Source: Bacteroidota bacterium
GTDB lineage: Bacteria; Bacteroidota; Ignavibacteria; UBA10030
Direction of reading: 5' to 3'
Assembly (NCBI GenBank): GCA_035499415.1
Contig: DATJYV010000029.1
Coordinates: forward strand, 589 to 64,588
DNA length: 64,000 nt
Part shown: one piece after another, positions 25,247 to 47,912 of the stretch
Layout of the letters: the number at the start of each line of letters is the position of its first letter
Position numbering within the stretch: position 1 is the first letter of the stretch
The notes under the pieces: model-generated
Database searches by the model: none
Told to the model about the DNA's origin: nothing
The model's input: only the letters and a program-made list of their open reading frames with translations
Program-made: the position numbers and the translations under genes

Positions 25247-25306
25247 GTCCGTTATTCCTGTTGTGATGCTTGAAGGTGCGCGTCCGTGGAGAGACTCCGG
25301 AACCTC

Positions 25307-25732: not shown

Positions 25733-25808
25733 TCAGCAGCATCTCCTTCCAGTGATTTCCGGGATGACCGCGACAACCTCTCCGCGACCGTCCCCAATCC
25801 CCGATCGC

Positions 25809-27143: not shown

Positions 27144-27159
27144 GACGTGGAAAGAAAAG

Positions 27160-27204
27160 GATTGAGGTTAAGGTTGAGGTTGAGGTTGAGGTTGAGGTTG
27201 AGGG
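27160..27204. repeat. Hexanucleotide microsatellite (GGTTGA/GGTTAA)x7 in the preT-preA intergenic spacer
   Basis: Direct reading: attgag gttaag gttgag gttgag gttgag gttgag gttgag ggc. It lies 20-60 nt upstream of the preA ATG. Confidence 0.85.
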
Positions 27205-27205
27205 C

Positions 27206-28561
27206 TCACGCGATTGATTTTTTCGAGAGATATTTGTCAATCCCATGCGCCGCACGCTTGCCGTCGTAGGCCGCGTTCACAACTTCCTTCCCGCCGTTGA
27301 TACAATCTCCGCCCGCGAAAACTTTCGCGTTCGTCGTCTGGTATGTCTCCGGGTCGACCGCAACTTTTCCGTTCTTCATCTTCACGCCGGGGATCTTCAG
27401 CACCAACTCCTTCGCAATTTCCTGGCCGATCGAGACGATCACCATATCCACCGGAATGGTGAACGTGGACCCGGGGATTTTTCTCAGCGTTTGACGACCT
27501 CCGGTGCGCGAGGTTTGCGCGACGACCCGTTCACATTCAATCCCCTTCACGTGTTTCTTCCCGACGATCCTTTTGGGAATGACGTTGAAGAAAAAGCGGA
27601 CTCCGTCGGTCTTGGCGAGGGCGTATTCAAAATCGTACGCAGACATGTCCTTTTCGGAACGCCGGTAGATGATGGACACGTCGTTCGCCCCCAGGCGTTT
27701 CGCCTCCGTCGCCGCGTCAATCGCGGTGTTTCCCGCCCCGATCACCGCAACGCGCGTGCCGACATCGACGGACTTCCAGCTCCGGGTCGTGACGCGTTGG
27801 ATGAACTCGAGGGCCTCATAAACGCCTTCAGTCGCTTCGCCGCGGATCCCCAGCCGCACCGCCCTGGGGAGACCCGTCCCGATGAACATGGCATCGTGCC
27901 GCTGCAGGAGTTCGTCCACGGTCATGTCTTTGCCGATTGTTACGCCCGTGCGAATGGAAACGCCCAGCTTTTCGACGAGGCCGACTTCCTTCATGCTGTC
28001 CGCCTGGCGCATCTTGTATGGAGCTATTCCCCACGTATCGAGTCCGCCCGGCTTTTTCTTGCCTTCGTAGACGACCGCCTCGTATCCCATGAGCGAAAGC
28101 TCGGCTGCGCACGCAAGTCCCGCCGGCCCGGCGCCGATGATGCCCACAGACTTTCCGTTTCTGGGCAAAGGATGGAACAGCGGGGGCGCCCCCGCTTCGA
28201 AGTACCGGTCCATCGCAAAGCGCTGCAACCGGCCGATTTGAATCGGTTCTTCTCCCCGCTCGTTGTAGACGCACGCTCCTTCGCACAGAACATCCACGGG
28301 GCACGCCTTCGCACACGTGAGCGCGACCCAGTTCGAGCTTAAGATCGTCTTCGCCGACCCTTGCAGATTCCCCGACGCAATCTTTTTGATGAACGTCGGA
28401 ATATCGATGTGGGTGGGGCAGGCCTTCGTGCAGGGAGAGTCGAAACAATAGAGACAGCGATTCGCATCGGCAACGGCAGCGTTCGCGGTAAAGGGGGGAT
28501 GGAGCTCGGCGAAGTTCTGCTCGTACTGCGAAGGAGGGAGTTTTGGGGCAACGTTCTTCAG
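27206..28561 (-). CDS. preT: NAD-dependent dihydropyrimidine dehydrogenase subunit PreT (glutamate-synthase small-subunit-like; FAD/NAD plus 2x[4Fe-4S])
   Basis: The track ORF starts at a GTG (28297). The same frame upstream encodes the conserved PreT N-terminus (AELHPPFTANAAVADANRCLYCFDSPCTKACPTHIDIPTFIKKIA...) without any ATG/GTG/TTG. The only candidate is a CTG at about 28561. The frame is contiguous with the aminotransferase gene, separated by a single TAA. Confidence 0.7.
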   Translation of the reverse strand: MKNVAPKLPPSQYEQNFAELHPPFTANAAVADANRCLYCFDSPCTKACPTHIDIPTFIKKIASGNLQGSAKTILSSNWVALTCAKACPVDVLCEGACVYNERGEEPIQIGRLQRFAMDRYFEAGAPPLFHPLPRNGKSVGIIGAGPAGLACAAELSLMGYEAVVYEGKKKPGGLDTWGIAPYKMRQADSMKEVGLVEKLGVSIRTGVTIGKDMTVDELLQRHDAMFIGTGLPRAVRLGIRGEATEGVYEALEFIQRVTTRSWKSVDVGTRVAVIGAGNTAIDAATEAKRLGANDVSIIYRRSEKDMSAYDFEYALAKTDGVRFFFNVIPKRIVGKKHVKGIECERVVAQTSRTGGRQTLRKIPGSTFTIPVDMVIVSIGQEIAKELVLKIPGVKMKNGKVAVDPETYQTTNAKVFAGGDCINGGKEVVNAAYDGKRAAHGIDKYLSKKSIA

Positions 28562-28579
28562 AAAAGACTCCGCGGGTTG

Positions 28580-29929
28580 TTAGACTGCCTCGGCATCCGC
28601 CAACGCGAGCGCTTCATCCATCACCCGGACCCCTTCGTCGATCTCCTTTTCTGTAACGATCAACGGAGGTGCAACCACGAAGTGACTCACCCACGCCTGG
28701 ATGAAGACGCCGTTCTGCATCATACGTCCCGCAATTTTCTCGACCATCGCGGGGACTCCGCTCACTTTATCCCTGAACGAATTGAAATACGTTTTCTTTT
28801 TCCGGTCCTTCACCAATTCCACACCCCAGAACAGGCCGAGCCCGCGGACCTCGCCGATGCATTTGTGCCGATCCTGGAGAGCGCGAAGTTTCTTCCCGAG
28901 GTACGCTCCCATGGTCTCGGCGCGTTCGATAAGGTTCAGTCTTCGATATTCGTTGATCGCCGCGATCGCCGGCGCCAGGGTCAGCGGATGGGCCTCATAG
29001 GTGTGGCCGTGCGCAAAGAAGTGGTCGTCAAAGTGGGACGCGACTTTCATCGTCGTGGCACACAGGCCGAGGGGAACATACGCCGTCGTGATCCCCTTTG
29101 CCGTGACGAGGATGTCCGGCCGTACGCCCCAATGGTCGACCGCAAACCACTTCCCCGTCCTCCCCCAACCGCTCATCACCTCGTCCGCAATCAGCAGGAC
29201 GTTGTTCCGGTCGCAGATCTCACGGAGCCGCGGCATGTACTCTTTCGGCGGAATGAGCACGCCGTTCGTACCGACGACGGGTTCGACGATCACCGCCGCA
29301 ACGTCGCTCTCGTTTTCGATCATGTGCTCCAGGTAATCAGCACAGGCGATGTCGCAAGCGGGATACTCATGGTTGATTGGACAGTCGTAGCAGTTGACCT
29401 CCGGCCCGAAGATGACCCCCTGGACTTTGCTTGCGGGTTCCGCCGCCCACCGGCGGGGGTCTCCCGTCGCGGCGATCGACCCCATCGTTGAACCGTGATA
29501 CGACCGGTAGCGCGCGATGATCTTCGTCTTGCCCGTCACCATCCGGGCGATCTTGAATGCGGCCTCGTTCGCCTCGGTTCCCGAGGTCGTAAAGAAGAAC
29601 TTCTCCAACCCCTTGGGGAGCACCTCGAGCAACATCTTGCTCAATTCGGCCCGGACATCCGTCGCATAGCCGGGGGCGATGTACGGGAGTTTCCGCGCCT
29701 GCTCCTCGATCGCACGGATGACCGCCTGATTCTTGTGTCCCAGCTGGACGCACATGAGCTGAGACGAGAAATCAAGATACTTCTTCCCCGCCGCATCCGT
29801 GAAATAGCAACCTTCCGCGTCGACGACGTGAAGCGGTTTCCATCCCTTCTGGAACCGCCACGTGCCGTACGTATTCCGGGCGGTAATATCGGTGATTTCC
29901 TGTGAGGTGAGTGAAGACGCCATGGTCAA
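28580..29929 (-). CDS. Class-III (omega) aminotransferase, probable beta-alanine/3-aminoisobutyrate:pyruvate or 2-oxoglutarate transaminase
   Basis: 449 aa, PLP fold-type I. Conserved class-III aminotransferase segments with a PLP-lysine region. Operon context. Confidence 0.8.
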   Translation of the reverse strand: MTMASSLTSQEITDITARNTYGTWRFQKGWKPLHVVDAEGCYFTDAAGKKYLDFSSQLMCVQLGHKNQAVIRAIEEQARKLPYIAPGYATDVRAELSKMLLEVLPKGLEKFFFTTSGTEANEAAFKIARMVTGKTKIIARYRSYHGSTMGSIAATGDPRRWAAEPASKVQGVIFGPEVNCYDCPINHEYPACDIACADYLEHMIENESDVAAVIVEPVVGTNGVLIPPKEYMPRLREICDRNNVLLIADEVMSGWGRTGKWFAVDHWGVRPDILVTAKGITTAYVPLGLCATTMKVASHFDDHFFAHGHTYEAHPLTLAPAIAAINEYRRLNLIERAETMGAYLGKKLRALQDRHKCIGEVRGLGLFWGVELVKDRKKKTYFNSFRDKVSGVPAMVEKIAGRMMQNGVFIQAWVSHFVVAPPLIVTEKEIDEGVRVMDEALALADAEAV

Positions 29930-30058
29930 ATCCGTCCTGTCGTATTGTCGTGCTGACTGGAAACTATCTCAAAAACCCAGATCGCGTCACCCTGAAACCC
30001 CGTAACGAAGCACGGGGCGGGCAAGTTCAGCTTGACGGTAGCTATTTTGAGACAGCGT

Positions 30059-30934
30059 CTAACCATACGCTTCCACCAGTTCCTTGTACGATTCAGGCCT
30101 ACGGTCGCGGAAGAACTGCCACACCTGCCGCACTTCCTGAATCATATCCATCGAAAGGTCGGCAACGACAAGCTCATCTTTATCCCGGCTGGCCTGGGCG
30201 ATAATCTTTCCCCGCGGATTACAGAAATAGCTCTTCCCATAGAACTCGCCGATGTTCCAGGGAGGTTCCGTCCCGACGCGATTGATCGCCCCGACAAAGT
30301 AGCCGTTGGCAACCGCGTGGGCCGGTTGTTCCAGTTCCCACAGATACTCCGAAAGCCCTGCCACGGTGGCCGAAGGGTTAAACACGATCTCCGCACCGTG
30401 CAGGCCCAGCACGCGCGCCCCCTCGGGAAAGTGCCGGTCATAGCAAATGTAGACACCGATGTCGGCATACTTCGTCTTGAAAACGGGATAGCCGGTGTTC
30501 CCCGGCTTGAAGTAGAATTTCTCCCAGAACCCCGGGTCGACCTGCGGTATATGATGCTTCCGGTATTTTCCGAGATAGGATCCGTCTGCGTCGATCACGG
30601 CGGCAGAATTATAGTACACGCCCGTCATCTCTTCTTCATACACGGGAGCGATGATCACCATTCCATATTTTTTCGCGTACGACTGGATGAGTTTGATGGT
30701 CGGACCGTCCGGAACTCGCTCGACCATCGCGTACCACTTCGTTTTCTGTTCGGCACAGAAGTACGGGCCGTAGAACAACTCCTGCATGCATAATATTTGA
30801 ACGCCCTTCCCTCCGGCCTGCTCGATGAGATGGACATGCTTGTCCACCATGGCCTTTTTGATCTTCTCGATGGGTTGTTCCGTCGACTCGGCGAGCTTGC
30901 ACTGAATCAGTCCGCCCCTCACAATACGAGACAT
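30059..30934 (-). CDS. Beta-ureidopropionase / N-carbamoyl-beta-alanine amidohydrolase (nitrilase superfamily)
   Basis: 291 aa CN-hydrolase with the Glu-Lys-Cys triad context (GVYICYDRHFPE). GGAGG RBS 5 nt before the ATG. Confidence 0.8.
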   Translation of the reverse strand: MSRIVRGGLIQCKLAESTEQPIEKIKKAMVDKHVHLIEQAGGKGVQILCMQELFYGPYFCAEQKTKWYAMVERVPDGPTIKLIQSYAKKYGMVIIAPVYEEEMTGVYYNSAAVIDADGSYLGKYRKHHIPQVDPGFWEKFYFKPGNTGYPVFKTKYADIGVYICYDRHFPEGARVLGLHGAEIVFNPSATVAGLSEYLWELEQPAHAVANGYFVGAINRVGTEPPWNIGEFYGKSYFCNPRGKIIAQASRDKDELVVADLSMDMIQEVRQVWQFFRDRRPESYKELVEAYG

Positions 30935-31794: not shown

Positions 31795-32886
31795 TTATGC
31801 CTGTGGCAGTGTGATTTTAACAACCGTTCCGTTCCCCGGCCGGCTCTGAACTTCCAGATTGCCGCCGTGAAGTTTGGCGAGGCGGGCGACAATCGTAAGC
31901 CCCAGCCCCGAACCCTGCTGTTCATAAATCTTTCGCTCAAATTGAACGAACGCCCCGATCCCGCCTATCTGCTCGGGAGACATGCCTCGTCCCTGGTCGG
32001 TCACCGAATAGACATAACCGTAATCACGGACTTCGGATTCGACCTTCACCGGCGATCCTGCCTTGGAGTACCGGAATGCGTTATCGAGGACTTCTTCCGC
32101 CATCTTCGAGAAATAGCCGGGTGCGATTGCGAGCGAAGAATCGACGAGCCGCACCAAAAGGTCGGACGACCTGTTGAACTCCTCCGATTTCACACGGCCC
32201 GTCCGTTCCAGCATCTCGGCAACGTTTATTGCGTGCGACTCTTCCCGCTGGTGCTCTGCATGGACTGCCGTCTGCTGGAGCTCGAGCTGCGCATACAGGA
32301 GATAATTTTCGACGAGACGCTGCAGCCGGCGGGCGTTCCGGTACATCCTCTCCGACATCCGCGCGATCTCGGCGGGCTGCAGGTCGTCGGATTGTTTGCG
32401 CATGAGGTCGGCATATCCGAGGATGCCGTTGAGCGGCGTGCGGAGTTCGTGCGGGAGCATGGCGCTCATGCTGATGCGAAGCTCATCCAGTTTTTTCCCC
32501 GCATCCTTCATCAGTCGACGATGCTTCTCCAGGCGCGCGTTCACGGCCGAAATGAGCTCCGCCCCGGTGAACGGTTTGGGAAGGTAATCGTCGGCGCCGA
32601 GCTCCATGCCGTGACGCATCCCTTCGCGGTCCGCCAGGGCCGTCATGAGAATGAACGGGATGCTGGCCGTCGAAGGGTTTTTTCGGATTGCCGAGAGCAT
32701 CTCGAATCCATCCACGACTCCCAGATGGATATCGCAGACGATAAGGTCCGGAAGTTGTTCCACCGCCAGTTCTATTCCTTCCGCGCCGTCGTCCGTCCCG
32801 AGCGTTTCAAACCCGTTCTGTCGCAGGACGCTGACGACAAACGCCTGCTGTGACCGCTCATCCTCTATGACCAGGACTTTTGTCAA
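31795..32886 (-). CDS. Hybrid response-regulator/histidine kinase (REC-HisKA-HATPase_c), cytoplasmic, no sensor domain
   Basis: The N-terminal receiver (KVLVIEDE...LIVCDIHLG) is followed by an H-box (LPHELRTPLNGILGYA) and an ATPase with N/G boxes. The probable start is TTG (MTKVLVIEDE), 4 nt after the GT2 stop. The longest ORF starts at 32946. Confidence 0.8.
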   Translation of the reverse strand: MTKVLVIEDERSQQAFVVSVLRQNGFETLGTDDGAEGIELAVEQLPDLIVCDIHLGVVDGFEMLSAIRKNPSTASIPFILMTALADREGMRHGMELGADDYLPKPFTGAELISAVNARLEKHRRLMKDAGKKLDELRISMSAMLPHELRTPLNGILGYADLMRKQSDDLQPAEIARMSERMYRNARRLQRLVENYLLYAQLELQQTAVHAEHQREESHAINVAEMLERTGRVKSEEFNRSSDLLVRLVDSSLAIAPGYFSKMAEEVLDNAFRYSKAGSPVKVESEVRDYGYVYSVTDQGRGMSPEQIGGIGAFVQFERKIYEQQGSGLGLTIVARLAKLHGGNLEVQSRPGNGTVVKITLPQA

Positions 32887-32890
32887 GTTG

Positions 32891-34197
32891 CTACCGGCGC
32901 TTCGGGCGGGAAAGGGGGATCGGCGAACGCGCGGCCTCCGGCACATCGAACCTTTTTGTCTTCTCCCAGAATTTCTTATCCTTCTTGAAATATTCCGTGT
33001 GGAGTGCCTTCAGGACGACGTAGATCCAGAGCTGGCAATAAGAAAAATACATGACGATCAGGAGGCCGACTTTTTTCAGGTCGTCCTCGCCGTCGAACGA
33101 GATCGCGAGCATGATTTCGAAAATGAAGAGGAAAAACGCGACGACCCACACAAATGTGTACGGTCCGGGAAGAGCGATGCTCACGAGGCTCGAGACGCTG
33201 AGGATGAACAGCAAATCGGAAATCAGAATCGCGCCGAAGAACACATAATACAGGGAGAGCGTGTACAGCAGGTCGAACGCGAGGCGGCGGTTTTTGAAGT
33301 TGGGGATGTGGCGGAAGAATTTTGAAACGACGTAATTGTTCCCTCGCACCCATCGCAGCCGCTGGCCGATCCACACGGACCATTCCTGCGGCTCCTGTTC
33401 GAACGTCACGGCGTAGGGAATGTATTTGATCCTGTATCCTTCCTCATAGATCCGGATGCTGAGCTCTGAATCCTCCGTGAGAGCGGCTTCGTCCCATCCC
33501 TGAAGGTCCCGGATGAGCTTCGTGCGGGCGACGAAATTCGTCCCCGGGAGGGTCGCGATGCCGTGCATCTCCCAACGGCCGGCCTGCAGCATGGACTGGA
33601 AGCTGAGCGTTTCGATGTTGATGAATTCTGTCAGGAGGTTGACATGTTTGTTGACGGTCCTGAACTTTCCGATGACGGCTCCGAGGTCGTCGTGCATCAC
33701 CAACTGTGCGACGAGATAGCGCAGGGCGCCCGGCTCCGGCGTGTTGTCGGCGTCGTAGATCGCCACGACATTCGAGCGTACGCGCTGAATCCCAAGGTTG
33801 AGCGCCCGGGCCTTTCCCCTGCCCCCTTCACCTTTGGGAACGTCGAACAGGATGATCCGCTTGTCCGCGCGGGCGTAGCGGCGCACGATATTCCGTGTTC
33901 CGTCCGTCGAGCCGTCGTTCACGACGACAATCGTCAACTTTCGGCGCGGGTAGTCCAGGGCCCTCATGGCATCCAGGGTTTGCGCGATCACCTTTTCTTC
34001 ATTATGCGCCGGGATGAGGATGGAACACGAGGGATAGTCTATTTCCATGGCGTCCACATCCGAGCGCTCGCGCATCGACCGGACATAATTCAGGAACCCG
34101 AAGACGGTCAGGACGAATTGGTACGCGATCATGAACCAGATGAGGATGACCGCGATGACGAACAGGAAGCTGAGGTCGACTTCGAACCAGGTCATCG
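32891..34197 (-). CDS. GT2 processive beta-glycosyltransferase (PgaC/IcaA/NodC/chitin-synthase-like polysaccharide synthase)
   Basis: N-terminal TMs, GT-A domain with DGSTD, YDADN (DxD) and GQRLRWVRGN (QxxRW), then 3-4 C-terminal TMs. The ATG (MTWFEVD...) overlaps the TGA of the upstream 1708-aa gene (ATGA). Confidence 0.8.
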
Positions 34198-37100
34198 CCG
34201 CGCGCTCCTGGCGGCGGGTTTTTTGCGCCCGACGACTTTCAGGCTGAGATACATGAGGAAGAGCGAAGTCACGGCTGCGGAGCCGAAAATGGCGATAGCC
34301 GTCGTCGACCACAGGCTTGTCACGTTGATCCCGTAGGAGAACTCGCCGCCGACTTCAATCTCCACCGAATGTTTTCCGGCCGGCAGGAGGAGACTGTAGC
34401 AATCATTCCCCTTGAGCACGGTCGGACGGACGGACTGGCCGTCGATCGTGAGGCCGGTCGGCTCGGCGTTGAGCGATACGATAGCACGGGGGCCGGAATC
34501 GTAGACCAGCGACGCGGAACGCATACCGTATGAGACGAACTCGAGATTCCCGGTGAACGACATGATCCTCGTTTGGAGTGCATGAGTGGAGAACGCACCC
34601 GCAGCGCCGGCTGCGAACCGGACTTCATGTTTCCCTGCGGGAATGAGGTACTCATTGTCCCGGAACGGCGAGAGGATGGCGCCGTCGACCGAGATCTCGG
34701 TGACCGTTCGGGGAAGCTTGAGATTGAAGGACGTGGGGCTCTCGAAATCATAGCCGGCGGCCGTCGGACTCGAGACGACGCGGCTCGCGGCGGCATACGG
34801 AAAGAACATCATGTCCTGCGGGTTGACTGTTTCTTCGCAGTAAATGGTAAATTTCCGGGCGCCCATCGAAGCCGCACGAACGAGCTGATAGCTTTCGACG
34901 CCCGTTTGAATGAGCGTCGGGAACGGCGTAACGACATCCTTCTTCCGGAAGCTCAGGATGTTGAGGTCGAGAGAAAGCCTGCTGCTGTCGCTCACAAATT
35001 TTTGATACATCGCCCCCATCGAAGCGTAGCGCGACGGATCCGTCGACCACAGCTTCTCCGGGTCTTCGACCTGCAGGATGAAGCCGTATTTATGCTGAAG
35101 CCGGATGATCTCCGACATGTCAGCGCCGTAATATTCCCGGAGTTCCGGCGAACCGAAGCTGTCCATGCCGGTCACGATCGTCTGGAACCCGGGCTTTGAC
35201 GCGGCCACATCCTGTGCCATCTTCAGCAGAATCTCGTATACTTCCGTGAGCTTCCCAACCCGATAATCGTCGACTTCCTGGCGCACTGCCGTGTTTTCGC
35301 GCCAGTAATAGAGTGAGCTCGGGTCGAAGATCTTCACAAGGTCAATCCCGTATTTCTTGCGAAACTCTCTCTGCGCGGAAGGATGCATCGGCGCGAACAC
35401 CCGCGGGTCCTCGTACCCGCGGCCTCCCTCGAAATAAAGCTCGGCGATGTTCACGCCGTCGAAATCGTACGCGAGGAGAAGTCTCCGGTACTCATCCGTC
35501 GCAGCTTCCACACACCGGGGGTCCGTCAGCGCCATGGCGTAACGCCACATCGGCGCGGCATCTTCCCCTTTGTAATTCTTTTCCCTCCATTCGGGATGCT
35601 GGTTCCAAAACTTCTGGCTCACCTGCGGCGGTTCGAGCCACGCATAGACAAGGATCCCGTTCGCGTGCGCGACGCGAATGAGCCGGCCGTAGTCGTACGT
35701 GTATTCCCGGTATTCGCGCAGCTTGGGATAATCGTGCCAGCCGGCAACATGCACGGCCCTGATTCCCTGGCCGACCCATCGCTTGACGAGGGCCTCAATA
35801 CTGTACGTCTGGCGAAGTCCGGGGTCGAAGAAGAAATCGAGCCCGTTGCGACGCACCACCGGACGAAGCCGAAAATACGACCGGACGTATTCCACGAAAT
35901 AAGGGTAGTGGGAATATCCTTCCTGTGACGTCGGGTCGAATCGGGCTCCAAGGAAGAGCACCTTTCCTTTCCCGTACCTCTTGCCGATGGCAAGAGGCGT
36001 TTCCGACTGTTCGTCCGAACAGAACGTCTCGTCCACCTCGTCCGCGTCGAATTTGTGGACGAGCTCCCAATTGCGCCAGGCGACGGGTTCCTCGGGGAAG
36101 AGATGATCCTCGACATGGAGGATCCTCTGCGTCGTTTGCACGTAGTGGATTCCGAATTCCTCCGCAAGGTCGTTCTTTCCGTCTGTCACGAGGTTTCCAC
36201 CGTCACGAACGAACTTCGTGATCGCGTCGTACTGCTCGTCCTTGAGCGAATCGACACTGCCGTAGGGGACGATGAGAAGATTGTAGCGGGCGAGGTTGAG
36301 GTTCTGGTCCGCGAAGATCGTATCGACGCGCAGGTTGACACTCCGGAGCGCGGAGACGAACGACGCCTGGTCGTTGTACGCCGCCCCTTTGACGTGATAG
36401 TCCCACAACACCGCCGGCCGCGCTTCCTGCCAGTCCTGGTCCGACTGAAACACGGTTTCGACCGCCCGCTCGGCCCGGTGGAAGACCTTTTCTGCGAGCG
36501 TCGCCTCGTGTTCATGGAACTCGGTCGGTTCGGCTTTGTAGAACTCCCCGGGGTTCAGGGTGATATGTTTCGTGATGGCCCCTTTGAGGCGGACGTCGGA
36601 TACGATACGCTTTGTCAATTCGCCGTTCGTATCAAAGTAGGCCTCGAGGAGATATTGGTCGTCGAGCGTGATCGTATAATCCTGGGTCCCCGCCAGAATC
36701 ACCCGGTCTTTGGTCTTCACCCATTGCTTCTGCTCCGTCAGGTCGGCAAATGTATATCCCAATTTTTCGATCCCTTCGACAAGCTCGTCGAGCAGGTCGA
36801 GGTCGAGAAACGAATGAAAGAAGCAGGCCGCGTATCCGTCCCGGACGTAGAGGTTCGCCTTCGCCCCCCGGATAATGTCCTGAACCGCCCGGCGGCTCAC
36901 ATTTTTATCTGCGTCGAGCGGCACGTAGCCGAGATTCTCCGGGTAGATTCGCTGGCCGTAGATGTCCTTCTTGATGACGTACGGGAACATCTGACTGTAC
37001 TCGTAGTTCTCGATCGCCAGGCGCTGTTCCATCGCAGAGCTGAAGTATTTTGCTATCGTGCGGTAGAGCAAAGTTGAAGCCGTGTAGTGCGGCGTCTCCC

Positions 37101-39318
37101 ACAGGAGCGGATAGATTCCGTTCCGCATGCATTCCTGAATGCCGAGTTCCACTTTCTTTGAAATCCACTCCGCGGATTCATCCCGCACCGGTCTGTTGGT
37201 GCTCTCGTCCCAGAACTCAAAATCAGTGGCGGTGATCCCTTTGTACTGATGCGTGATGCCGTGCAGGACGATCGTCGCGCCGTTCTTGACCATGTATTTG
37301 AGCGCATCGACAAGCTCCGGCTTGTCGGAGAGACTGACTCGAATGCCCTGGAAGGGGTCGACGTAAAACGGGATGACGCCGACAAGAAACGGAATCCCGC
37401 GGCTCGAAAGATGGTCAGCGACATCGCGAAGCTTGTTGGGGTCATCAAGGGGAGAAACGTCTTCAATGCGGATCAGTGCAGTGTGGGACTCCTCGTGCTG
37501 TTCGTGGAGGATGTCGTGGAGCATGTCCGCAAAAAGAAGGTAGCGATCGGTTTCCGTCGCCGAGGCAAAAGGCGAATCGGCCCAGTACATGAGATTCCCC
37601 GCCTGGATAATGTACGGAATCTCGACCCGCCGACGGTTCGAGTACGCCGTCCCGAGCACACGCGCACGCCGCCGGTTCAGGACGGTGACAAGGTTTGCGT
37701 TCGGTTCCCCTTTGGTGAACGTCTTCCCCTGGTAACGGACGACATCGTAAATGCTGACCGAATCGAGCTCCGTCACCTCGAAACCGTACTGTCTGCGGAC
37801 CCGCTGCGCGCGGCTGAATTCGGCGAAGCCGGTGTTCATCCAGATGACGGGCTTCGTCGTTTGCAGGATATCGTTCGTGAATTTTTCCGGCACCGGATTT
37901 ACGGCATTGAACCCGATGTAGAACGTGTAATCGAACCCGTTCATTTGCCCCGGTACATATTGATTGACGCCGATGACGACGTTGGACGTGTTGAAATGTC
38001 CCAGGAGCTGTTGCAGTTGCCGACCGTCCCCCATCGCGAGGTTGTTCAGGTCCGAGTTTCCTTCGACGACGACGAGCACGTGCTTGGGCGCATCCGGCGC
38101 CGCCCGCATCGGGCCAAAGAGGCCGCACAGAGACAAGCCGAGGGCGAGGACGATCTTGCGAATGCGCCGAGACGGACGGAATTCGCTCACTCTTCTGTTC
38201 GATAGCCCGAGATGCTTCTTGATGAACCCCGCGATCCGTTCGGCTGCGCGCCCATCACCATAGGGATTGACGGCCGACGCCATTTTCGCATACGCGGACC
38301 GGCTTTCAAGGAGTCGACGGGTTTCCCGGACGATTCGCTCCCGTGCGAGCCCCACCAGCCGTACGGTCCCGAAGTCGACAGCTTCGGGCCGCTCCGTGAC
38401 ATTTCGGAATACCAGAATGGGTTTTCCCAACGCCGGCCCCTCCTCCTGCACACCGCCGGAATCTGTCAGGATGAGGTACGAGCGCGCCATGAGGTTTACG
38501 AAGTCTTTGTAATCAAGAGGTTCGATGAGGATGATGTTCGGAATTCCGTCGAGGATCGGATAGACCGTTTCACGGACAAGAGGATTAAGATGAACCGGAA
38601 AGACAAAAAGATGGTCGCCGAACCTGGCCGCAATCTGCTTGACGGCCCGGCACGCCCCCTCCATGGGCGCTCCCCAGTTCTCACGCCGATGCATGGTCAA
38701 CAGGATGATTCTACGTCTGCTGGCAACCGCTTTCCGAACCGCCGCGCTGCCGAATTCGTGGTCGGCGCGCACCGCGAGGTTCAGCGCATCGATGACGGAG
38801 TTTCCGGTCACGTGAATCCGGTCCGGGTTGATGTGCTCACGCAAGAGCGCGCGCCGCGCGGTCTCGGTTGGAGCGAAGTGAAGGTCGGCCAACGCGCTCG
38901 TGAGCCGTCGATTAATCTCCTCCGGAAAAGGGTTCGCCTTGTCCCCTGTGCGCAAGCCGGCTTCCACGTGGCCGACCGGAATGCCACGATAAAAAGCGGC
39001 GAGACTTCCGGCAAACGTCGTTGTCGTATCGCCCTGGACAAGTACCATGTCGGGGTGCTCGCTCTGAAGCACCGGGTCGAGTGCGGCAATTGTCCTCTCC
39101 GTGAGGGCTGCGAGCGTTTGCCGGGGCCGCATGATATTCAGATCGTGGTCGGGGTGGATTCCAAAAACATCCAAAACCTGGTCGAGCATGTGACGATGTT
39201 GGGCCGTGGCGATCGAAACCACCGAAAACAGTTTGGGCTCTTCCCTGAGCCGGAGAATGACTGGTGCGAGCTTGATCGTATCCGGCCTGGTGCCGAATAT
39301 GACGGCGATTTTTCTCAC
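34192..39318 (-). CDS. 1708-aa multidomain membrane protein: UDP-GlcNAc 2-epimerase (WecB-like) - TM - polysaccharide-deacetylase-like (DUF2334/CE4-like) - GATase1/ThuA-like - TIM-barrel glycosidase-like - beta-sandwich domains - C-terminal TM
   Basis: GTG start. Residues 1-375 carry the non-hydrolysing epimerase motifs HVEAGLRTGD and DSGGVQEE. A TM helix (IVLALGLSLCGLFG) follows. Then come IRIEDVSPLDD and LHGITHQY (deacetylase-like), NLLIVPYGSV...DGGNLV (ThuA-like), and GIRAVHVAGWHDYP...ILVYAWLEPP...FDGVNIAELYFEGG (glycosyl-hydrolase-like TIM barrel). The C-terminus has Ig-like repeats and a TM (AIAIFGSAAVTSLFLMYLSL). The antisense ORFs were rejected. Confidence 0.7.
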   Translation of the reverse strand: MRKIAVIFGTRPDTIKLAPVILRLREEPKLFSVVSIATAQHRHMLDQVLDVFGIHPDHDLNIMRPRQTLAALTERTIAALDPVLQSEHPDMVLVQGDTTTTFAGSLAAFYRGIPVGHVEAGLRTGDKANPFPEEINRRLTSALADLHFAPTETARRALLREHINPDRIHVTGNSVIDALNLAVRADHEFGSAAVRKAVASRRRIILLTMHRRENWGAPMEGACRAVKQIAARFGDHLFVFPVHLNPLVRETVYPILDGIPNIILIEPLDYKDFVNLMARSYLILTDSGGVQEEGPALGKPILVFRNVTERPEAVDFGTVRLVGLARERIVRETRRLLESRSAYAKMASAVNPYGDGRAAERIAGFIKKHLGLSNRRVSEFRPSRRIRKIVLALGLSLCGLFGPMRAAPDAPKHVLVVVEGNSDLNNLAMGDGRQLQQLLGHFNTSNVVIGVNQYVPGQMNGFDYTFYIGFNAVNPVPEKFTNDILQTTKPVIWMNTGFAEFSRAQRVRRQYGFEVTELDSVSIYDVVRYQGKTFTKGEPNANLVTVLNRRRARVLGTAYSNRRRVEIPYIIQAGNLMYWADSPFASATETDRYLLFADMLHDILHEQHEESHTALIRIEDVSPLDDPNKLRDVADHLSSRGIPFLVGVIPFYVDPFQGIRVSLSDKPELVDALKYMVKNGATIVLHGITHQYKGITATDFEFWDESTNRPVRDESAEWISKKVELGIQECMRNGIYPLLWETPHYTASTLLYRTIAKYFSSAMEQRLAIENYEYSQMFPYVIKKDIYGQRIYPENLGYVPLDADKNVSRRAVQDIIRGAKANLYVRDGYAACFFHSFLDLDLLDELVEGIEKLGYTFADLTEQKQWVKTKDRVILAGTQDYTITLDDQYLLEAYFDTNGELTKRIVSDVRLKGAITKHITLNPGEFYKAEPTEFHEHEATLAEKVFHRAERAVETVFQSDQDWQEARPAVLWDYHVKGAAYNDQASFVSALRSVNLRVDTIFADQNLNLARYNLLIVPYGSVDSLKDEQYDAITKFVRDGGNLVTDGKNDLAEEFGIHYVQTTQRILHVEDHLFPEEPVAWRNWELVHKFDADEVDETFCSDEQSETPLAIGKRYGKGKVLFLGARFDPTSQEGYSHYPYFVEYVRSYFRLRPVVRRNGLDFFFDPGLRQTYSIEALVKRWVGQGIRAVHVAGWHDYPKLREYREYTYDYGRLIRVAHANGILVYAWLEPPQVSQKFWNQHPEWREKNYKGEDAAPMWRYAMALTDPRCVEAATDEYRRLLLAYDFDGVNIAELYFEGGRGYEDPRVFAPMHPSAQREFRKKYGIDLVKIFDPSSLYYWRENTAVRQEVDDYRVGKLTEVYEILLKMAQDVAASKPGFQTIVTGMDSFGSPELREYYGADMSEIIRLQHKYGFILQVEDPEKLWSTDPSRYASMGAMYQKFVSDSSRLSLDLNILSFRKKDVVTPFPTLIQTGVESYQLVRAASMGARKFTIYCEETVNPQDMMFFPYAAASRVVSSPTAAGYDFESPTSFNLKLPRTVTEISVDGAILSPFRDNEYLIPAGKHEVRFAAGAAGAFSTHALQTRIMSFTGNLEFVSYGMRSASLVYDSGPRAIVSLNAEPTGLTIDGQSVRPTVLKGNDCYSLLLPAGKHSVEIEVGGEFSYGINVTSLWSTTAIAIFGSAAVTSLFLMYLSLKVVGRKKPAARSARR

Positions 39319-39476
39319 AGTCTGCCGTCAGCGACGGTCAATACCCTGTCCACCATGAAATCAAAATAGAGGATTTTTGAAAGGTGTGCAAGTAGAAGAA
39401 CGACGGGAAGAAAAGCGGCCGACTCTCCCGGGTGTTTGAATCCGGGGAGCGGGATGAACCGGCGGGGAAAAATGAA

Positions 39477-39938
39477 TTACTCGGTGACCGTGTAGATTAT
39501 CTTGGGCGTTTCCTGTCCGAGGGTCGACCGGGGAAAATCATAGTCGACATCGATGGTACGGGCCGAAGAGGCATCGCCGCCCGGCGAGAGCGTAATCGAT
39601 TCCCCGCGGGCGACCAACTGTTGAACCGTGACGGTTTGCATTGATGTCCGGGTTTCAACCGTCATGCGCTGCGAGGTGCCGCGATCCAAATCAGCCGTGA
39701 CCTTTGTGGATTGGGAGGGTGACCCTTGAAGCTCGAGAGATGCCCGAACGCCTTCCACAGCGCCGGAGCCCGCAAGCGGAATTGCCCGGGCGTTGCTCAG
39801 AGGGTTGATGACGAGCCGATGAGAGATGCTGACGCCGAAGACCACCTGCTGAACTGCTGAAGAGCGGACCTGACCGTGCGAATCCTGGACGATTCCGGCG
39901 GTTAACATGATCAAGAGTATGGATTTTCGGCAGCTCAC
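39477..39938 (-). CDS. Small secreted Thr/Ser-rich protein, fimbrial-subunit-like (family member 1)
   Basis: 153 aa. N-terminal signal-like segment. C-terminal beta-strand IIYTVTE. 1-nt spacing to the neighbouring gene. Confidence 0.4.
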   Translation of the reverse strand: MSCRKSILLIMLTAGIVQDSHGQVRSSAVQQVVFGVSISHRLVINPLSNARAIPLAGSGAVEGVRASLELQGSPSQSTKVTADLDRGTSQRMTVETRTSMQTVTVQQLVARGESITLSPGGDASSARTIDVDYDFPRSTLGQETPKIIYTVTE

Positions 39939-39939
39939 G

Positions 39940-40497
39940 TTAGTCCGTCAAAGTCAAGGTTACGAGACGTTCGTCTCTGTCGATTCCACCGACGCCGGAA
40001 CCTGCGACAAAGGTGTATCGGATCGACTGGTCTCTGTCGCTCCCCCTGCCGATCCCGGTCACGACATCAACAGGTACGAGGGCCGCTGAAATGTCGACAT
40101 CGCCAACGCTGCTTGCGCGTCCCGACGCGAGGTTGATCTTGAGCCGGGTTCCACTCGGCATGCTTGAGTTGATCGAGGCAACGATTTTCACATTATCGAG
40201 ATTTGTCGCTATGCTGTATTGCGAATGCTGGTCGGAAACGCTTACGTCTTCGCCCGCGTAGACCTTTTGCACCATGAGAGGCGCAGGATTTCCCGTCACT
40301 CTCAGCACTGCTATCGGCCGGACCTCGACCGTTACGATCTGCTTCACGGAGCTGTGAATCGGCTGCGGGAATGCGACCGAAATGATTGACAGGAGGGAGA
40401 GCCCTATGAACGGAAGTCTCGTCAAGGGATGCGATCGATGAGGCAAGAACGCTAAAGATGAAGCGATTGTCAAGTTTGCAATTGGCGCCGGTGGCAT
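39940..40497 (-). CDS. Small secreted pilin-like subunit (family member 2)
   Basis: The C-terminal half (...SVGDVDISAALVPVDVVTGIGRGSDRDQSIRYTFVAGSGVGG..RLVTLTLTD) parallels the 46205/46758 paralogues. The signal peptide is LPFIGLSLLSIISVAFPQ. The start is an ATG (MPPAP) or a TTG further in. Confidence 0.45.
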   Translation of the reverse strand: MPPAPIANLTIASSLAFLPHRSHPLTRLPFIGLSLLSIISVAFPQPIHSSVKQIVTVEVRPIAVLRVTGNPAPLMVQKVYAGEDVSVSDQHSQYSIATNLDNVKIVASINSSMPSGTRLKINLASGRASSVGDVDISAALVPVDVVTGIGRGSDRDQSIRYTFVAGSGVGGIDRDERLVTLTLTD

Positions 40498-40681
40498 GTT
40501 CGATCTTGGGCGAATCATGACCACAGGAAGGACAACAACCATGCCCTCCCGCCAGCTCACGCCGCGAAGGAGCAACGTCGATAACTAATTGCCAATAAGG
40601 ATGTTGGAGAGAGGTGATTCGAAGGGCTGGAAGATGGAGGGATGATCGAATTGTAGTTTCTACAATTCCACAGCTATCAGC

Positions 40682-43600
40682 TCACTGCTCGTGCCCTACT
40701 GACTTGCAGATAGCTTCAGCGGCAGCGCGCGTATTGAATTTCCCGGTAATGACCCGGTAGCGAATCCCAAGGTTGGGGATGTTCACTCGGTCGACAAAGA
40801 CTTTGCGTCCCAGGATCTTTCCCATATGCGACCCTTGGGACTGTGCCTTGGCGCGCGTTTTCCAGGACGATATTTGGACCATAAACTTCTTTGAGGGCCT
40901 ATCGAAGAATATAAGGCAAGGACCGGGCTCGTCCATCTGCGCCTTCGGCTCCTTGACTTGTTCCTGGGGAGCAGGTTGCGGCGCGTTCTCGGGTTTTTCC
41001 GGTTCTATCACCCCTTGCTGGATGATTTTGATGATCCGTTTGCGTGGTAGAATTTTGAAATCGCCCTCCGCGTGAGTTCCGGCCTTCAGCTCCAGGGCAA
41101 GCGAATCCGGTTCCATGCGATGATAGTCGGGAATATCCCCCCCTTCAATTCTGAGTGTCCAACTTCCGGGTCGCAGGTCCCCGAAAACGTACCTCCCGCG
41201 ACTGTCCGTCACGCGTCTGTGAACCTCATCCCCCTGGTATAACGCCATGAAGACTCCGGCCCTTGCTTCCTTCTCGCGATACACCGTTGCACCCAAGGAA
41301 TCCGAAGGTGCCTCCTCGTTCACTTCATACAAAACGACGGTCCCCGATACCTGCGCACTTCGTGTGACGTTGATCTGAACAGGCGTTTCCTCTCCCCCAC
41401 GTACCTCGACTTCGAGCGGCATCGGCTGGAGCGTCACGCGGTCGAGCCCGATGCTCTCTTTGTCGACCTGAACATAGATCGGCCCCGGTTTCACGCCCGG
41501 CAGGTAGAATTCTCCGTTCCCGTCGGTCACTGAAGCCGATTCTCCCGCGTTCACGAGAATATTGGGCAAGCCCACTCCCGTCTCGCCGACGACCCGGCCC
41601 CGCAACGACCCGACCGATCCAATGCGGGCGATGGGGACGTTCAACGGAATGGCATATTCAAGAAGATATGCCGTTTCGCGCGGCGTCACCGCCGGCGTGA
41701 GAAGATTCTGCCGCGCCCGGAGCGTGATCTTGTGGTTGAAGGGGAAAATATGTTCAAGCGAGAATTCGGACAACGTGCTCGTTTGTGGCGTTGCACTGTT
41801 CACCCTGCTGCCAAAAATGTTGAATTGGACCTGCGTCGCCTCCCCAAAAAGCACCCATGCCGATAAGCTGGCCGAGAGCCGCTCTTCTACTTCTCCCGTG
41901 TAAATATCCTGGTCGTTTGAGTACTCGACGGAAGCGCTGTAGTTCTGCGCGGCCGTAGGACGCACCGACGAGAATAGGGATACGTGCTGGTATGGATAAT
42001 TCTTCAGCGCGAGCTTGTCCTCGATGACGCCGTATTCGGAATTCCCGTTGATACTCACGCCGGCGAAATTGAAACCGACCCGCATCTGAAACGTGTTTTC
42101 GCTTCGCCGGTACTTCGGATTTTCCAGCAGATCATCCTGTCCGTCGTAGTGGTAGTAGAAGGACACAAGGTCAAAGTACGAAAGGCCAAGCTGGTAGAAT
42201 TGGTCGCGGGGAGCGTATATTTGATTCGTGTCGCGCGCAAGATTCCGTTCTTCGTCCCGAAAATAGGTTTCGAGCCGGATCGTCTTCGAGATTTGATACG
42301 AAATGCTGCTTGATTTGAAGCTCAGGTCGCGGTAGTATCCTCCGAAGTTCGTCCCTGCATCGATATACCGGATATCGTAGGCGAGCGACGGCTCTGTGCC
42401 GTTGAATCGGAGGGCAACTGCGTCATCGCTCTTCCCTTCCATGGCACCGCGGCCGTATTCGACGTCGACGCTGGAGTTGGTGAATGGATGCGACAGTCCC
42501 CGTAACGTGTAGAGGTCGCTCGAGTATTGATCCCTTCGGTTGAGGTAGTTGGCGCCAAGCTCGTAATCGGGGGAAAATTGATAGCTCACGAACCCTCCGC
42601 CTTCATCCTGCCGCTGGTCGATCCATCGGGTTTTGTCGTACAATCCTCCCACAGAGAACCCGGCGACCGTCGTTCTTGCGCCCGCCCCTGTCGCAAACCG
42701 TCCGCTCTCGGTCAGGGGAGAAAGCGTATAGTTCATGTCCCCGAGCTGCAGTTCCGTCGCACTGTTCACGTACGACAGGTAATATTCATCACGCAAGCCC
42801 AGAGAGGAAATCGATTGCGTCTCCGGTCCCCGCGCGAGGAATGAAAATTTGTCGTCCCGTTTCTCTGACAGACTCCCATAGCCGGATACTTCGAACTGCG
42901 TGGACCGCGCATCCTGCTCGCCCACACCCCGAAGCTTGAGCTGAATGGGATACTCTACGAACTGTTCTTCTCCCTGCGATTCCTGGGAAACAACGTCGGT
43001 CACGACCGAGGCACTCACGGCAACCGTGGAGTCCTGCCTCGAAGTCGCGATGAGCTGAAGGGTTTGATGGACTTTTCCCGCCCCCTTGTCCGTTACGACG
43101 GAGACCGGAATTTCGCGCGTGTCGCGCGGATTGAGTGCGATAACGGGGTCCGGGACCTTCGTCGCGTATCCCTCCGAAGACCTGGCTTCAAGGGTTACCG
43201 TCACCGGAGTGTTTCCGGCGTTCGTCAGGTCGAACGTTGCCGTAAAGGACCGTCCCCCAATGACAAATCGGGGCGCGTCGATGGGTTCGATTTTCAGGAG
43301 GTAAATCGTCTCCACTTTCACGGTTATCTCGGCAGCGGCCTCGTGCGCGGGCGTTGCACGGTCTTTCGCCAGATACCGGAGACGATAGAGTCCCCCCGGT
43401 ACTTCTCCGGGAACTGCAAGGGTCAGAATCCGCGCGTCGTTGGCGCCGGCTTCGAGCGTGAACTGCGACTCGGGAGTCACCAGCCGCCACTTCGTCGGAA
43501 CCTGTACCTGGGGGTCGAAGGTCTGCGTGGAGCCGGTTCGATTCGTGACGACCACGCTGAAGGAAACGATTGAGCCCGGCTTGACCGACAAGATCTCACG

Positions 43601-43732: not shown

Positions 43733-43741
43733 GGCAGTCTT

Positions 43742-44569: not shown

Positions 44570-44576
44570 AATGTTC

Positions 44577-45029: not shown

Positions 45030-45033
45030 GGCT

Positions 45034-45537: not shown

Positions 45538-45610
45538 ATATTCGCGAAACACGTTCGGAGCCGGTGAAATATAGCCCTCTAATCGAGGATTATCAAGTTG
45601 AGACAGTGCC

Positions 45611-46120: not shown

Positions 46121-46204
46121 CGCTCGAGGCCTCGAAGATAGAAAAACCGTAGCGGCGACAGCTGGAAAACGCACGCTACGGCTTTCTCTCTCCTCCAGAG
46201 ATTC

Positions 46205-46705: not shown

Positions 46706-46757
46706 GATGGTATCCGTTCGATGAAGGTTGAGGTTTGGTGGTTTTTCAATTCGGTTG

Positions 46758-47252: not shown

Positions 47253-47379
47253 GACGAACTCCTTTTGTCTGGATTGGTGGATCGTTTTGTTTCCCGTATA
47301 ACCATCAATCCCCATGCCAATCCAGTTTTTGAACGAAAAATGGCGTTTTCCCAGATACGATTTGTTTTTCGTGAATTGA

Positions 47380-47893: not shown

Positions 47894-47912
47894 CACGAAA
47901 GAGAGTCTTCCC

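Follow-up and report, generated by a model that had tools for sequence, protein, structure and literature searches.

A candidate exopolysaccharide synthase module with an epimerase-deacetylase-TIM-barrel fusion protein in an uncultured Ignavibacteria-like bacterium

The window, i.e. the whole 64-kb stretch of DNA that was analysed, derives from an uncultured Ignavibacteria-like bacterium and harbors a module of three tightly packed genes, all of them, like every feature described below, on the minus strand. The giant gene (34192..39318) starts with GTG and codes for 1708 aa, the GT2 gene (32891..34195) codes for 434 aa from an ATG, and the kinase gene (31795..32886) codes for 363 aa from a TTG. 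At the giant/GT2 junction (cggcgATGAcctgg) the TGA of the former and the ATG of the latter share a 4-nt ATGA overlap, and the GT2/kinase junction reads TAG-caac-TTG, a 4-nt gap; the packing described in the original prediction is thus directly visible in the sequence. An alternative ATG at position 32946 would extend the kinase to 383 aa and create a 56-nt overlap with the GT2 gene; the TTG start is favored because the kinase homologue at locus L001, 64% identical, matches the 363-aa form starting with its very first residue, and the two genes are packed whichever start is real. In the 158-nt intergenic region located 5' of the giant gene (39319..39476), sequence reading reveals a hairpin (CTCCCCGG...CCGGGAG) and, behind it, a T-rich run, but no consensus sigma-70 promoter; this region probably represents the boundary and the promoter region of the module.

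The giant protein opens with a cytoplasmic non-hydrolysing UDP-GlcNAc 2-epimerase (WecB) domain, as anticipated (aa 1-370, 38209..39318). Specifically, it matches Pfam Epimerase_2 (E 4.7e-118) and the TIGR00236 wecB equivalog with 475.5 bits (cutoff 210), versus 75.8 bits for NeuC, it carries the motifs GTRPDTIK (K16), QGDTTT (D97), HVEAGLRT (E119), PFPEE, and MHRREN (H210), and it is 53% identical to a stand-alone Ralstonia WecB. An Arg/Lys-rich linker (RRVSEFRPSRRIRK) precedes TM helix 1 (aa ~386-407, 38098..38163; hydropathy segment 389-407), the counterpart of the signal peptide of unfused homologues, whose N-terminus consists of a signal peptide followed by KKILIVVEG. TM helix 2, the C-terminal anchor (aa ~1671-1695, 34234..34308; hydropathy segment 1673-1693), leads into a short, basic tail on the cytoplasmic side and is unusually well conserved: in an alignment of 76 homologues, conservation reaches 90% or more at its T, S, W, S, I, A, F, G, A, L, M, and Y positions, while column identity averages 56%. 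These two hydropathy segments overturn the earlier description of the protein as bitopic with a single TM helix.

Between the two anchors lies a periplasmic body, more than 800 homologues of which were found, so that this region is far beyond chance. It begins with a GATase1-like, GH42-middle-domain-like alpha/beta domain (aa ~410-605, 37504..38091), the N-terminal portion of a YdaL-like unit, and continues with a DUF2334 (YdaL/PssB-type) polysaccharide deacetylase domain of CE4-like fold (aa ~611-870, 36709..37488; Pfam DUF2334, E 1.8e-50). A beta-sandwich linker domain (aa ~871-945, 36484..36708) and, after it, a long helix (941-956), placed by means of AF2 models A and B and their secondary structure, lead to a second GATase1-like, Glyco_hydro_42M-like domain (aa ~965-1145, 35884..36426; the protein matches Pfam Glyco_hydro_42M with E 5e-9). 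The subsequent (beta/alpha)8 TIM barrel (aa ~1155-1510, 34789..35856) is glycoside-hydrolase-like, with a PgaB GH153/Cwp19-like fold and the PgaB GH153 domain as its top structural match, and a sequence-level match to GH153 was sought in it and not found. One or more C-terminal beta-sandwich domains (aa ~1511-1660, 34339..34788; secondary structure of AF2 model B) complete the body. Domain searches and structure models therefore bear out the predicted deacetylase-like segment and glycosidase-like barrel, with the correction that the deacetylase is of the DUF2334/YdaL type and not a canonical Polysacc_deac_1.

The GT2 gene encodes a membrane-embedded processive synthase matching Pfam Glyco_tranf_2_3 (E 1.7e-31), Glycos_transf_2, and Glyco_trans_2_3. 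All the expected processive-synthase motifs (D94, D148xD150, TED at 240-242, and QRLRW at 278-282) and flanking hydrophobic segments (1-36 and 307-396) are present, and the alignment to BcsA (4hg6, residues 6-325) spans the TM, GT, and QxxRW regions. The third gene encodes a soluble hybrid histidine kinase, recognized as such from the outset, in which Response_reg (1.5e-23), HisKA (1.8e-14), and HATPase_c (4.3e-21) are all matched by Pfam, D52 and H146 are present, and hydropathy reveals no TM segment.

The neighborhood of these genes is conserved among relatives. A periplasmic protein of ~1315 aa and the GT2 are adjacent in Ignavibacteria and Elusimicrobia, where the GT2 is the next gene downstream in 81 of the 84 loci that could be assessed, and fusions of the YdaL-like unit with the GT2 also occur (P0341, P0344, P0367). 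A stand-alone wecB lies directly upstream of the pair in 35 of 63 loci, while the remaining 28 have no adjoining wecB. Since wecB is thus frequently the next gene in its own right, the window lineage has fused two neighboring operon genes.

PssB and YdaL are DUF2334 proteins, and the likeness of the giant protein to them is one of Pfam family (DUF2334) and of JGI labels (its periplasmic family is labelled 'YdaL'); a DUF2334 protein encoded on a Bacillus plasmid shows 30% identity. A DUF2334 protein of the YdaL/PssB type and a PgaC-like GT2 form the core of B. subtilis ydaJKLMN and Listeria pssA-E (PMC13492145, PMC6307706, PMC4125290), in which, as in the module, an extracytoplasmic deacetylase-like protein stands beside a PgaC/IcaA-like membrane GT2. 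The claim of the original prediction that the combination occurs in no described system was therefore too strong, and the module is an uncharacterised variant of known biofilm-polysaccharide machines. Moreover, the Listeria Pss product, a beta-1,4-ManNAc polymer (PMC13492145), fits the WecB domain fused in the giant. Unlike Pss and Yda, the module lacks a BcsB-like PssD/YdaN, a degenerate-GGDEF c-di-GMP receptor (PssE/YdaK), and a PssZ/YdaJ-type glycosidase, its DUF2334 unit shares one polypeptide with a PgaB-like TIM barrel and, in the window lineage, also with WecB, its host is diderm, and its regulation would involve a REC-histidine kinase.

Other systems resemble the module in part. In E. 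coli NfrB-NfrA-WecB (NGR glycan), the GT2-type synthase requires UDP-ManNAc supplied by WecB (PMC8669472). Ralstonia megaplasmids carry an NfrB-like cluster that codes for an NfrB-like GT, a TPR protein, the 53%-identical WecB mentioned above, and a DUF2334 protein of 570 aa that is 31-32% identical to aa ~390-865 of the giant; there, in contrast to the giant, wecB and the DUF2334 gene are separate and the TIM-barrel module is missing. The GT2 of the module is distant from NfrB (22% identity; 25 bits to PRK15489) and devoid of its MshEN c-di-GMP domain, and no NfrA-like TPR or outer-membrane protein accompanies it. Compared with pgaABCD (PNAG), PgaA and PgaD are absent from the window, the likely sugar is ManNAc instead of GlcNAc, and the giant, which has no sequence-level similarity to PgaB, adds two GATase1-like domains, two beta-sandwiches, two TM anchors, and the WecB domain. 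The resemblance to PelA is at the fold level only, since domain order and families differ (the hydrolase comes first in PelA), and the PelD-G partners are absent from the module.

Taken with moderate confidence, these features point to a synthase-dependent machine for a partly de-N-acetylated exopolysaccharide, a HexNAc polymer most likely containing N-acetylmannosamine. The packed layout, the score of the WecB domain against its equivalog and its catalytic motifs, the GT2 motifs with flanking TM helices and the alignment to BcsA, the parallels between DUF2334 and ManNAc in Listeria Pss, the Ralstonia cluster, and E. coli Nfr, the recurrent GT2 downstream and wecB upstream, the fusions of the YdaL-like unit with the GT2, and the fused WecB form in three independent assemblies were counted in support. 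Layout, domain identities, folds, conserved catalytic-type residues, gene neighborhood, and the reality of the fusion are established; the mechanism built on them is inferred at every step. In the proposed mechanism, the WecB domain would convert UDP-GlcNAc into UDP-ManNAc at the membrane, and the BcsA/PgaC/PssC-like GT2 would polymerise the sugar and translocate the chain across the inner membrane. The periplasmic body, tethered by the N-terminal helix (a former signal peptide) and by the highly conserved C-terminal helix, which probably packs against the synthase, would receive the nascent chain; its CE4-fold DUF2334 domain would partly de-N-acetylate it, and the PgaB-GH153-like barrel may bind, trim, or release it. 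Lastly, the co-transcribed soluble REC-histidine kinase would link production to a phosphorelay, in the place that c-di-GMP receptors occupy in Pga, Pss, and Nfr.

The fold and the conserved acidic residues of the TIM barrel suggest that it may be catalytically competent. It is conceivable, albeit doubtful, that the whole C-terminal half, from the GH42M-like domain through the TIM barrel to the beta-sandwich, lacks catalytic activity and is a module for binding, scaffolding, or export chaperoning, with the role of BcsB or PssD and not of a hydrolase; this would be a version of the main model and not an exclusive alternative. In its favor stand the absence of any GH-family sequence match other than a weak one to GHL6 (E 0.028), the C-terminal TM anchor, which recalls BcsB and is highly conserved in the giant, and the C-domain of PgaB, to which binding and export were the first functions ascribed (PMC5933820).

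As to the sugar, the module might be a PNAG-like poly-GlcNAc system, a functional analogue of Pga in which the giant acts like PgaB, as deacetylase and dPNAG hydrolase, and WecB serves another pathway or modulates the UDP-GlcNAc pool. The best NCBIfam match of the GT2 is indeed PgaC_IcaA, a GlcNAc polymerase family, which counts against ManNAc, but its 151.6 bits come nowhere near the 422 bits of the equivalog cutoff; likewise, the structural match of the barrel and the deacetylase-then-hydrolase order recall PgaB, but the deacetylase is a DUF2334 and not a PgaB-type domain. The loci without adjacent wecB also speak for this alternative and against ManNAc: another sugar may be used there, or wecB may be encoded in a different part of the genome. 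The recurrence of wecB upstream and its physical fusion here speak against the alternative. Among DUF2334-associated polymers, only that of Listeria Pss has, to our knowledge, had its structure solved. This polymer is ManNAc-based (PMC13492145), and a poly-GlcNAc product is on balance unlikely.

A similarly improbable alternative to the ManNAc exopolysaccharide concerns export: the product could be a periplasmic or envelope-bound glycan, or short NodC-like oligosaccharides, processed by the anchored giant without a dedicated outer-membrane pore, and not a secreted matrix polymer. As predicted, Pfam searches of 53 window ORFs (nearly all the long ones) detected neither a PgaA/BcsC/PelB-like porin nor a PilZ or GGDEF receptor, and no TPR exporter was found; the lack of an outer-membrane exporter in the window counts against the preferred reading, and the anchoring of the giant to the inner membrane at both ends and the presence of NodC among the GT2 family matches are in line with a retained product. 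Conversely, in about half of the related loci the GT2 is directly followed by a gene for a protein of ~460 aa that has a signal peptide and an aromatic C-terminus, features consistent with a candidate outer-membrane partner, although its absence from the window again fits a retained product; furthermore, the alignment of the GT2 with BcsA extends through the TM region that characterizes synthases translocating polymers, and the homologous or analogous Pss, Pga, and Pel systems all make surface or matrix polymers.

The fused WecB ORF is uninterrupted in three independent assemblies, namely the window, ENA ERZ27256612, where synteny is the same and 8 of 1708 aa differ, and GCA_041478155.1, where the product is 72% identical and stays in frame from residue 1 of WecB onward. 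Hence, it is highly improbable that separate wecB and DUF2334 genes were joined into the 5.1-kb ORF by a misassembly or a frameshift, a concern that arose with the original prediction and to which the separate genes in all 35 other loci with wecB upstream and the WecB part of L001, which has a CTG at the homologous position and no canonical start codon, lend some substance, while the linker has what a functional fusion would need, namely positive-inside residues and a TM helix. In Ignavibacteria, the pair of periplasmic protein and GT2 is common, whereas the triad with the REC-kinase is confined to the window lineage: a kinase orthologue was found only in L096 and L001, and the kinase is specific to that lineage.

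The module consists of three minus-strand genes packed head to tail, namely the gene of the giant protein (34192..39318; 1708 aa, GTG start), the gene of the GT2 synthase (32891..34195; 434 aa counted from ATG) and the gene of a REC-HisKA-HATPase_c protein, hereafter REC-kinase (31795..32886; 363 aa counted from TTG). The first junction reads ...cggcgATGAcctgg..., hence the stop codon of the giant gene and the start codon of the GT2 gene share four bases, and the GT2-kinase junction reads TAG-caac-TTG in the window sequence. An alternative ATG start of the kinase would create a 56-nt overlap with the GT2 gene; the alignment to a 64%-identical kinase orthologue starts at residue 1 of the TTG form, and the tight head-to-tail packing holds with either start. 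ORF coordinates and junction sequences agree with the original prediction, which had described these three minus-strand ORFs. A scan for sigma-70 promoters and terminators found none above shuffled expectation, the consensus being probably not applicable to the host phylum.

The N-terminal domain of the giant protein matches Epimerase_2 in Pfam (E 4.7e-118) and scores 475.5 bits against the wecB equivalog model TIGR00236 (cutoff 210.15), with residues 3-367 covering positions 2-363 of 366, whereas the hydrolysing NeuC model, with its cutoff of 235.9, gives only 75.8 bits. In E. coli WecB, the catalytic and UDP-binding residues are K15, D95, E117, E131 and H213. The giant protein carries the motifs GTRPDTIK (K16), QGDTTT (D97), HVEAGLRT (E119), PFPEE (E133/134) and MHRREN (H210), whose residue equivalence is assigned by motif; the K15A variant of WecB is cited in PMC8669472. 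By equivalog score and catalytic motifs, the domain is thus predicted to be a non-hydrolysing UDP-GlcNAc 2-epimerase. Downstream of it, hydropathy identifies two hydrophobic helices, 389-407, which is preceded by an Arg/Lys-rich linker, and 1673-1693, a result at odds with the description of the protein as bitopic. The predicted topology has WecB on the inner side of the membrane, some 1260 aa on the outer side and a short basic tail that is again inside.

The fusion of WecB to the periplasmic part is real. A chimeric assembly as the origin of the ORF is dismissed by the occurrence of the fused ORF in two other assemblies. Specifically, the independent assembly ENA ERZ27256612 carries the 1708-aa protein on a 52.7-kb contig, where 8 residues are substituted and the synteny is unchanged. 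In the Bacteroidota MAG GCA_041478155.1 (locus L001), the fused homologue is 72% identical and keeps the full WecB part in frame; the GT2 gene (4-nt overlap) and then the REC-kinase gene come next. At L001 (3052-3340), the homologous WecB start position is a CTG, with no canonical in-frame start nearby (none in 3052-3100), and the public gene caller picked M91, which would truncate the epimerase. The CTG could be a genuine initiation codon, an error in the consensus or a sign that the domain is decaying. TM helix 1 of the fused protein sits exactly where the unfused homologues have a signal peptide at their start. A search with the 241-aa junction (aa 290-530) returned partial matches alone and missed the proteins P0001 and P0002, so it is uninformative on the rarity of the fusion.

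The periplasmic part comprises a YdaL-like unit (GATase1-like and DUF2334), a second GATase1-like/Glyco_hydro_42M-like domain, a TIM barrel and a beta-sandwich. Pfam matches cover DUF2334 (aa 614-849, E 1.8e-50) and Glyco_hydro_42M (aa 981-1130, E 5e-9), with a weak hint of GHL6 (E 0.028), and neither a sequence search nor a profile search of the PDB linked this part meaningfully to any solved structure. AlphaFold2 models of two segments, each built from a 76-sequence alignment, reach pLDDT values of 88.0 (aa 405-975) and 87.3 (aa 940-1708), and Foldseek relates them to PelA (5e-11) and PgaB (1e-10), with target-normalised TM-scores of 0.64-0.69 for the PgaB C-domain. The fold neighbours reported for the GH domain of PgaB, GH42, GH35, GH14, GH18 and GH20 (PMC5933820), are those found here. 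The predicted fold of the DUF2334 region agrees with CE4 deacetylases, and a CE4-like pattern is invariant in the 76 homologues (E619-D620, H686-x3-H690, xPHY 743-745, H835). Moreover, invariant or near-invariant acidic residues lie on or just past the predicted strands of the TIM barrel (E1229, E1293, D1386, E1418/D1419, D1451, E1495). In the models, both sets of conserved residues are compatible with putative active sites. Together with the Pfam matches and motifs, the models bear out most of the domain reading proposed originally for the module. In the same 76-homologue alignment, the C-terminal TM helix is conserved far above the protein average, which suggests that it packs against the synthase; in the cellulose system, the BcsB anchor packs against BcsA.

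The GT2 protein carries the motifs D94, D148-A-D150, T240-E-D242 and QRLRW (278-282), together with hydrophobic segments at 1-36 and 307-396, and phmmer aligns its residues 6-333 with structures of BcsA over a stretch that takes in the first TM helix and QxxRW. These features are those expected of a processive membrane-embedded synthase of the BcsA/PgaC/NodC/HAS type, to which the protein is assigned. Its best NCBIfam match is PgaC_IcaA (TIGR03937), at 151.6 bits, far under the equivalog cutoff of 422.3, and therefore the protein is not a PgaC equivalog. The match to the NfrB model PRK15489 amounts to 25.3 bits (cutoff 537).

The system belongs to a large and uncharacterised family. Among the scored candidates, 838 are homologues of the periplasmic part, typically of about 1315 aa and 56-63% identity and from Ignavibacteria or Bacteroidota MAGs, many of which are named 'YdaL' (JGI; 'uncharacterized protein YdaL') or 'DUF2334 domain-containing protein' (NCBI). 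When 1.84 billion cluster representatives were scanned exhaustively with HMMER, 1798 matched at E <=1e-3 and 761 at <=1e-30, and 221 metagenome loci were confirmed. In the related loci assessed, drawn from genomes and metagenomes and including Elusimicrobia at 34% identity, the GT2 gene lies immediately 3' of the periplasmic protein in 81 of the 84 assessable cases. A separate wecB gene lies immediately 5' in 35 of 63 loci, fused in none of these 35 (e.g. L013, L014), and an adjacent wecB is absent from the other 28. These adjacencies define the conserved unit as (wecB)-periplasmic protein-GT2, and the lineage of the window fused two adjacent operon genes. The two halves of the periplasmic part also stand alone among the top 150 representatives (39 YdaL-like units and about 50 GH42M-TIM units), and in three of these 150 the YdaL-like unit is fused directly to a GT2, a further Rosetta-stone argument for joint action of deacetylase unit and synthase. 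Stand-alone C-terminal halves of about 700 aa, with the GH42M-like domain, the TIM barrel and the beta-sandwich, occur at the related loci L007 (7258-8757), L009 (3278-5332) and L010 (2335-4386). Distant representatives of about 1650 aa were considered as further WecB fusions and rejected, as local BLAST shows that their N-terminal extensions of about 400 aa are not WecB; in four of them the extension is weakly TIM-like.

The original prediction regarded the module as a candidate for a new kind of exopolysaccharide machine. Comparison with the Pss/Yda, Nfr and Pga systems indicates that it is not categorically new, but a variant of the known synthase-dependent HexNAc exopolysaccharide machines. 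It brings together a deacetylase of the Pss type, a hydrolase fold of the Pga type and, fused to them, the epimerase for the precursor. The core of Pss/Yda consists of a DUF2334 protein and a PgaC-like GT2, YdaL and PssB themselves presumably being DUF2334 proteins, and the module likewise has a DUF2334 protein beside a GT2. The giant protein is also 30% identical to a DUF2334 protein on a Bacillus tropicus plasmid, which sits near a 423-aa GT2. The two reference systems are ydaJKLMN of B. subtilis (PMC13274460, PMC5422440, PMC7064775) and pssA-E of Listeria (PMC4125290), whose polymer is a beta-1,4-ManNAc chain with alpha-1,6-Gal (PMC13492145). Conversely, Pss/Yda also require PssD/YdaN, termed BcsB-like in published descriptions of PssD (PMC4125290), and a degenerate-GGDEF receptor (PssE/YdaK), neither of which was found here: scans of the module and the window gave no signal for a BcsB-like subunit, and Pfam detected no GGDEF or PilZ family in any of the 53 scanned ORFs of the window. 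The C-terminal portion of about 740 aa, similar in size to YdaN/PssD, was considered for that role and set aside, as judged by descriptions of those proteins, since it has no BcsB signal and tblastn of the C-terminal half against plasmids was empty.

A second relative is a cluster on a Ralstonia megaplasmid. Its products are a c-di-GMP-activated GT of the NfrB-like type, which scores 562 bits against the NfrB model, a TPR protein, a WecB that is 53% identical to the fused WecB domain, and a DUF2334 protein of 570 aa whose alignment with aa ~390-865 of the giant protein shows 31-32% identity. The NfrB-like GT of Ralstonia and the GT2 of the module share 22% identity. Nfr systems employ an NfrB-type GT with a C-terminal MshEN domain that binds c-di-GMP, whereas the GT2 of the module ends at 434 aa and has no MshEN domain. 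The Nfr glycan of E. coli depends on WecB-made UDP-ManNAc (PMC8669472). Listeria Pss, the Ralstonia Nfr-like cluster and the present family are thus three cases in which DUF2334 is found next to ManNAc supply or a ManNAc polymer. At the sequence level, a putative ManNAc-based product is indirectly supported by the fused WecB domain and by the wecB adjacency in those 35 of 63 loci. As for Pga, PgaB joins a Polysacc_deac_1 (CE4) domain to a GH153 domain; the TIM barrel of the module appears PgaB-like in fold and is, by analogy, the element taken over from the logic of Pga and Pel. The pgaABCD operon has the PgaA porin with TPR, whereas no TPR or porin family was found among the 53 window ORFs scanned, which are nearly all the long ones; PgaD is too small and divergent for such scans to exclude it.

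Instead of a REC-kinase gene, what follows the GT2 gene in 28 or more related loci (such as L014, L023, L026 and L062) is a gene for a signal-peptide protein of about 460 aa, which matches no Pfam family and has an aromatic C-terminus. By its sequence features this protein is a candidate outer-membrane beta-barrel, perhaps the missing exporter. At the related locus L004, this protein (15152-16543) has no Pfam match, ends in ...GIGIY and is followed by a Ycf48/BNR-repeat protein (16556-19315), a type of 700-920 aa that is often the next one after the candidate. The last ~30 residues of the L004 Ycf48/BNR protein weakly resemble T9SS-tail regions in the window, with no Por_Secre_tail match in Pfam. 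No homologue of the candidate outer-membrane protein is encoded in the 64-kb window.

As a working mechanism, the WecB domain would produce UDP-ManNAc at the membrane, the GT2 would polymerise the sugar and translocate the chain, and the doubly anchored periplasmic enzyme would partly de-N-acetylate the chain and then trim it or hand it on. The REC-kinase may add lineage-specific phosphorelay control. This protein is a hybrid histidine kinase by its domains, Response_reg 4-116 (D52), HisKA 139-202 (H146 in HELRTPL) and HATPase_c 261-362; hydropathy and a domain scan of its 363 aa found no TM or sensor domain, indicating a soluble protein, and, apart from the window itself, only L096 and L001 of the related loci assessed have an orthologue.

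We tentatively propose, as a possible rather than a probable reading, that wecB, the YdaL-like deacetylase joined to a PgaB-like hydrolase, and GT2, with the outer-membrane candidate in many relatives, constitute a distinct, widespread and c-di-GMP-independent synthase-dependent family that makes a partly de-N-acetylated exopolysaccharide of the poly-ManNAc type in diderm Ignavibacteria, Bacteroidota and Elusimicrobia, and that the lineage of the window tethers the epimerase to the periplasmic modifier, channelling UDP-ManNAc into the synthase. If the proposed model is right, it would define an exopolysaccharide system that is uncharacterised yet very common among environmental diderm bacteria, extending the catalogue of synthase-dependent systems with no current concept overturned. 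The WecB fusion would act as a natural 'Rosetta stone', with the testable prediction that the sugar is ManNAc. The equilibrium of the epimerase is unfavourable, and local product delivery would be a rationale for the fusion by overcoming it. The DUF2334 and TIM-barrel domains could serve to modify or disperse biofilms of ManNAc polymers, such as Listeria Pss and the N4 phage receptor glycan of E. coli.

Upstream of the module lies a cluster of secreted proteins with no Pfam families (39477-47315 on the minus strand and 47835-49298 on the plus strand), adjoined by a divergent sigma-54 response regulator. Five or more of its genes encode small secreted paralogues (39940-40575, 45034-45669, 45611-46174, 46205-46705 and 46758-47315), of which the last two are 71% identical. 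Two further members are a 301-aa secreted protein that is possibly Ig-like by its sequence (43742-44647) and a 1016-aa protein (40682-43732), whose N-terminal part gives weak Ig-like matches in Pfam, whose centre is rich in Tyr, Ser and Asn, and which also carries CarboxypepD_reg and, at the C-terminus, a SPOR domain. The 1016-aa protein was considered as the exporter and set aside, as the cluster is syntenic with the exopolysaccharide module only in the closest relatives L096, L001 and L015, and as the protein sits among the paralogous small secreted proteins of an apparently separate fimbria-like system. The cluster is probably a separate surface-fibre system, fimbria- or usher-like. Downstream of the module lie a DinB-family gene and a reductive pyrimidine-catabolism-like set (23834-30934, minus strand; amidohydrolase, DHO_dh/4Fe-4S, Pyr_redox_2, class-III aminotransferase and CN_hydrolase) with a cytosine/purine permease beside it (21291-22817), and this set appears unrelated to the exopolysaccharide genes. 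Farther along, a Por_Secre_tail protein with the T9SS C-terminal sorting domain (10959-12713) and a TonB-dependent receptor with a CarboxypepD_reg N-domain (12883-15903), both on the minus strand, are consistent with the origin of the window in the FCB group (Ignavibacteria/Bacteroidota).
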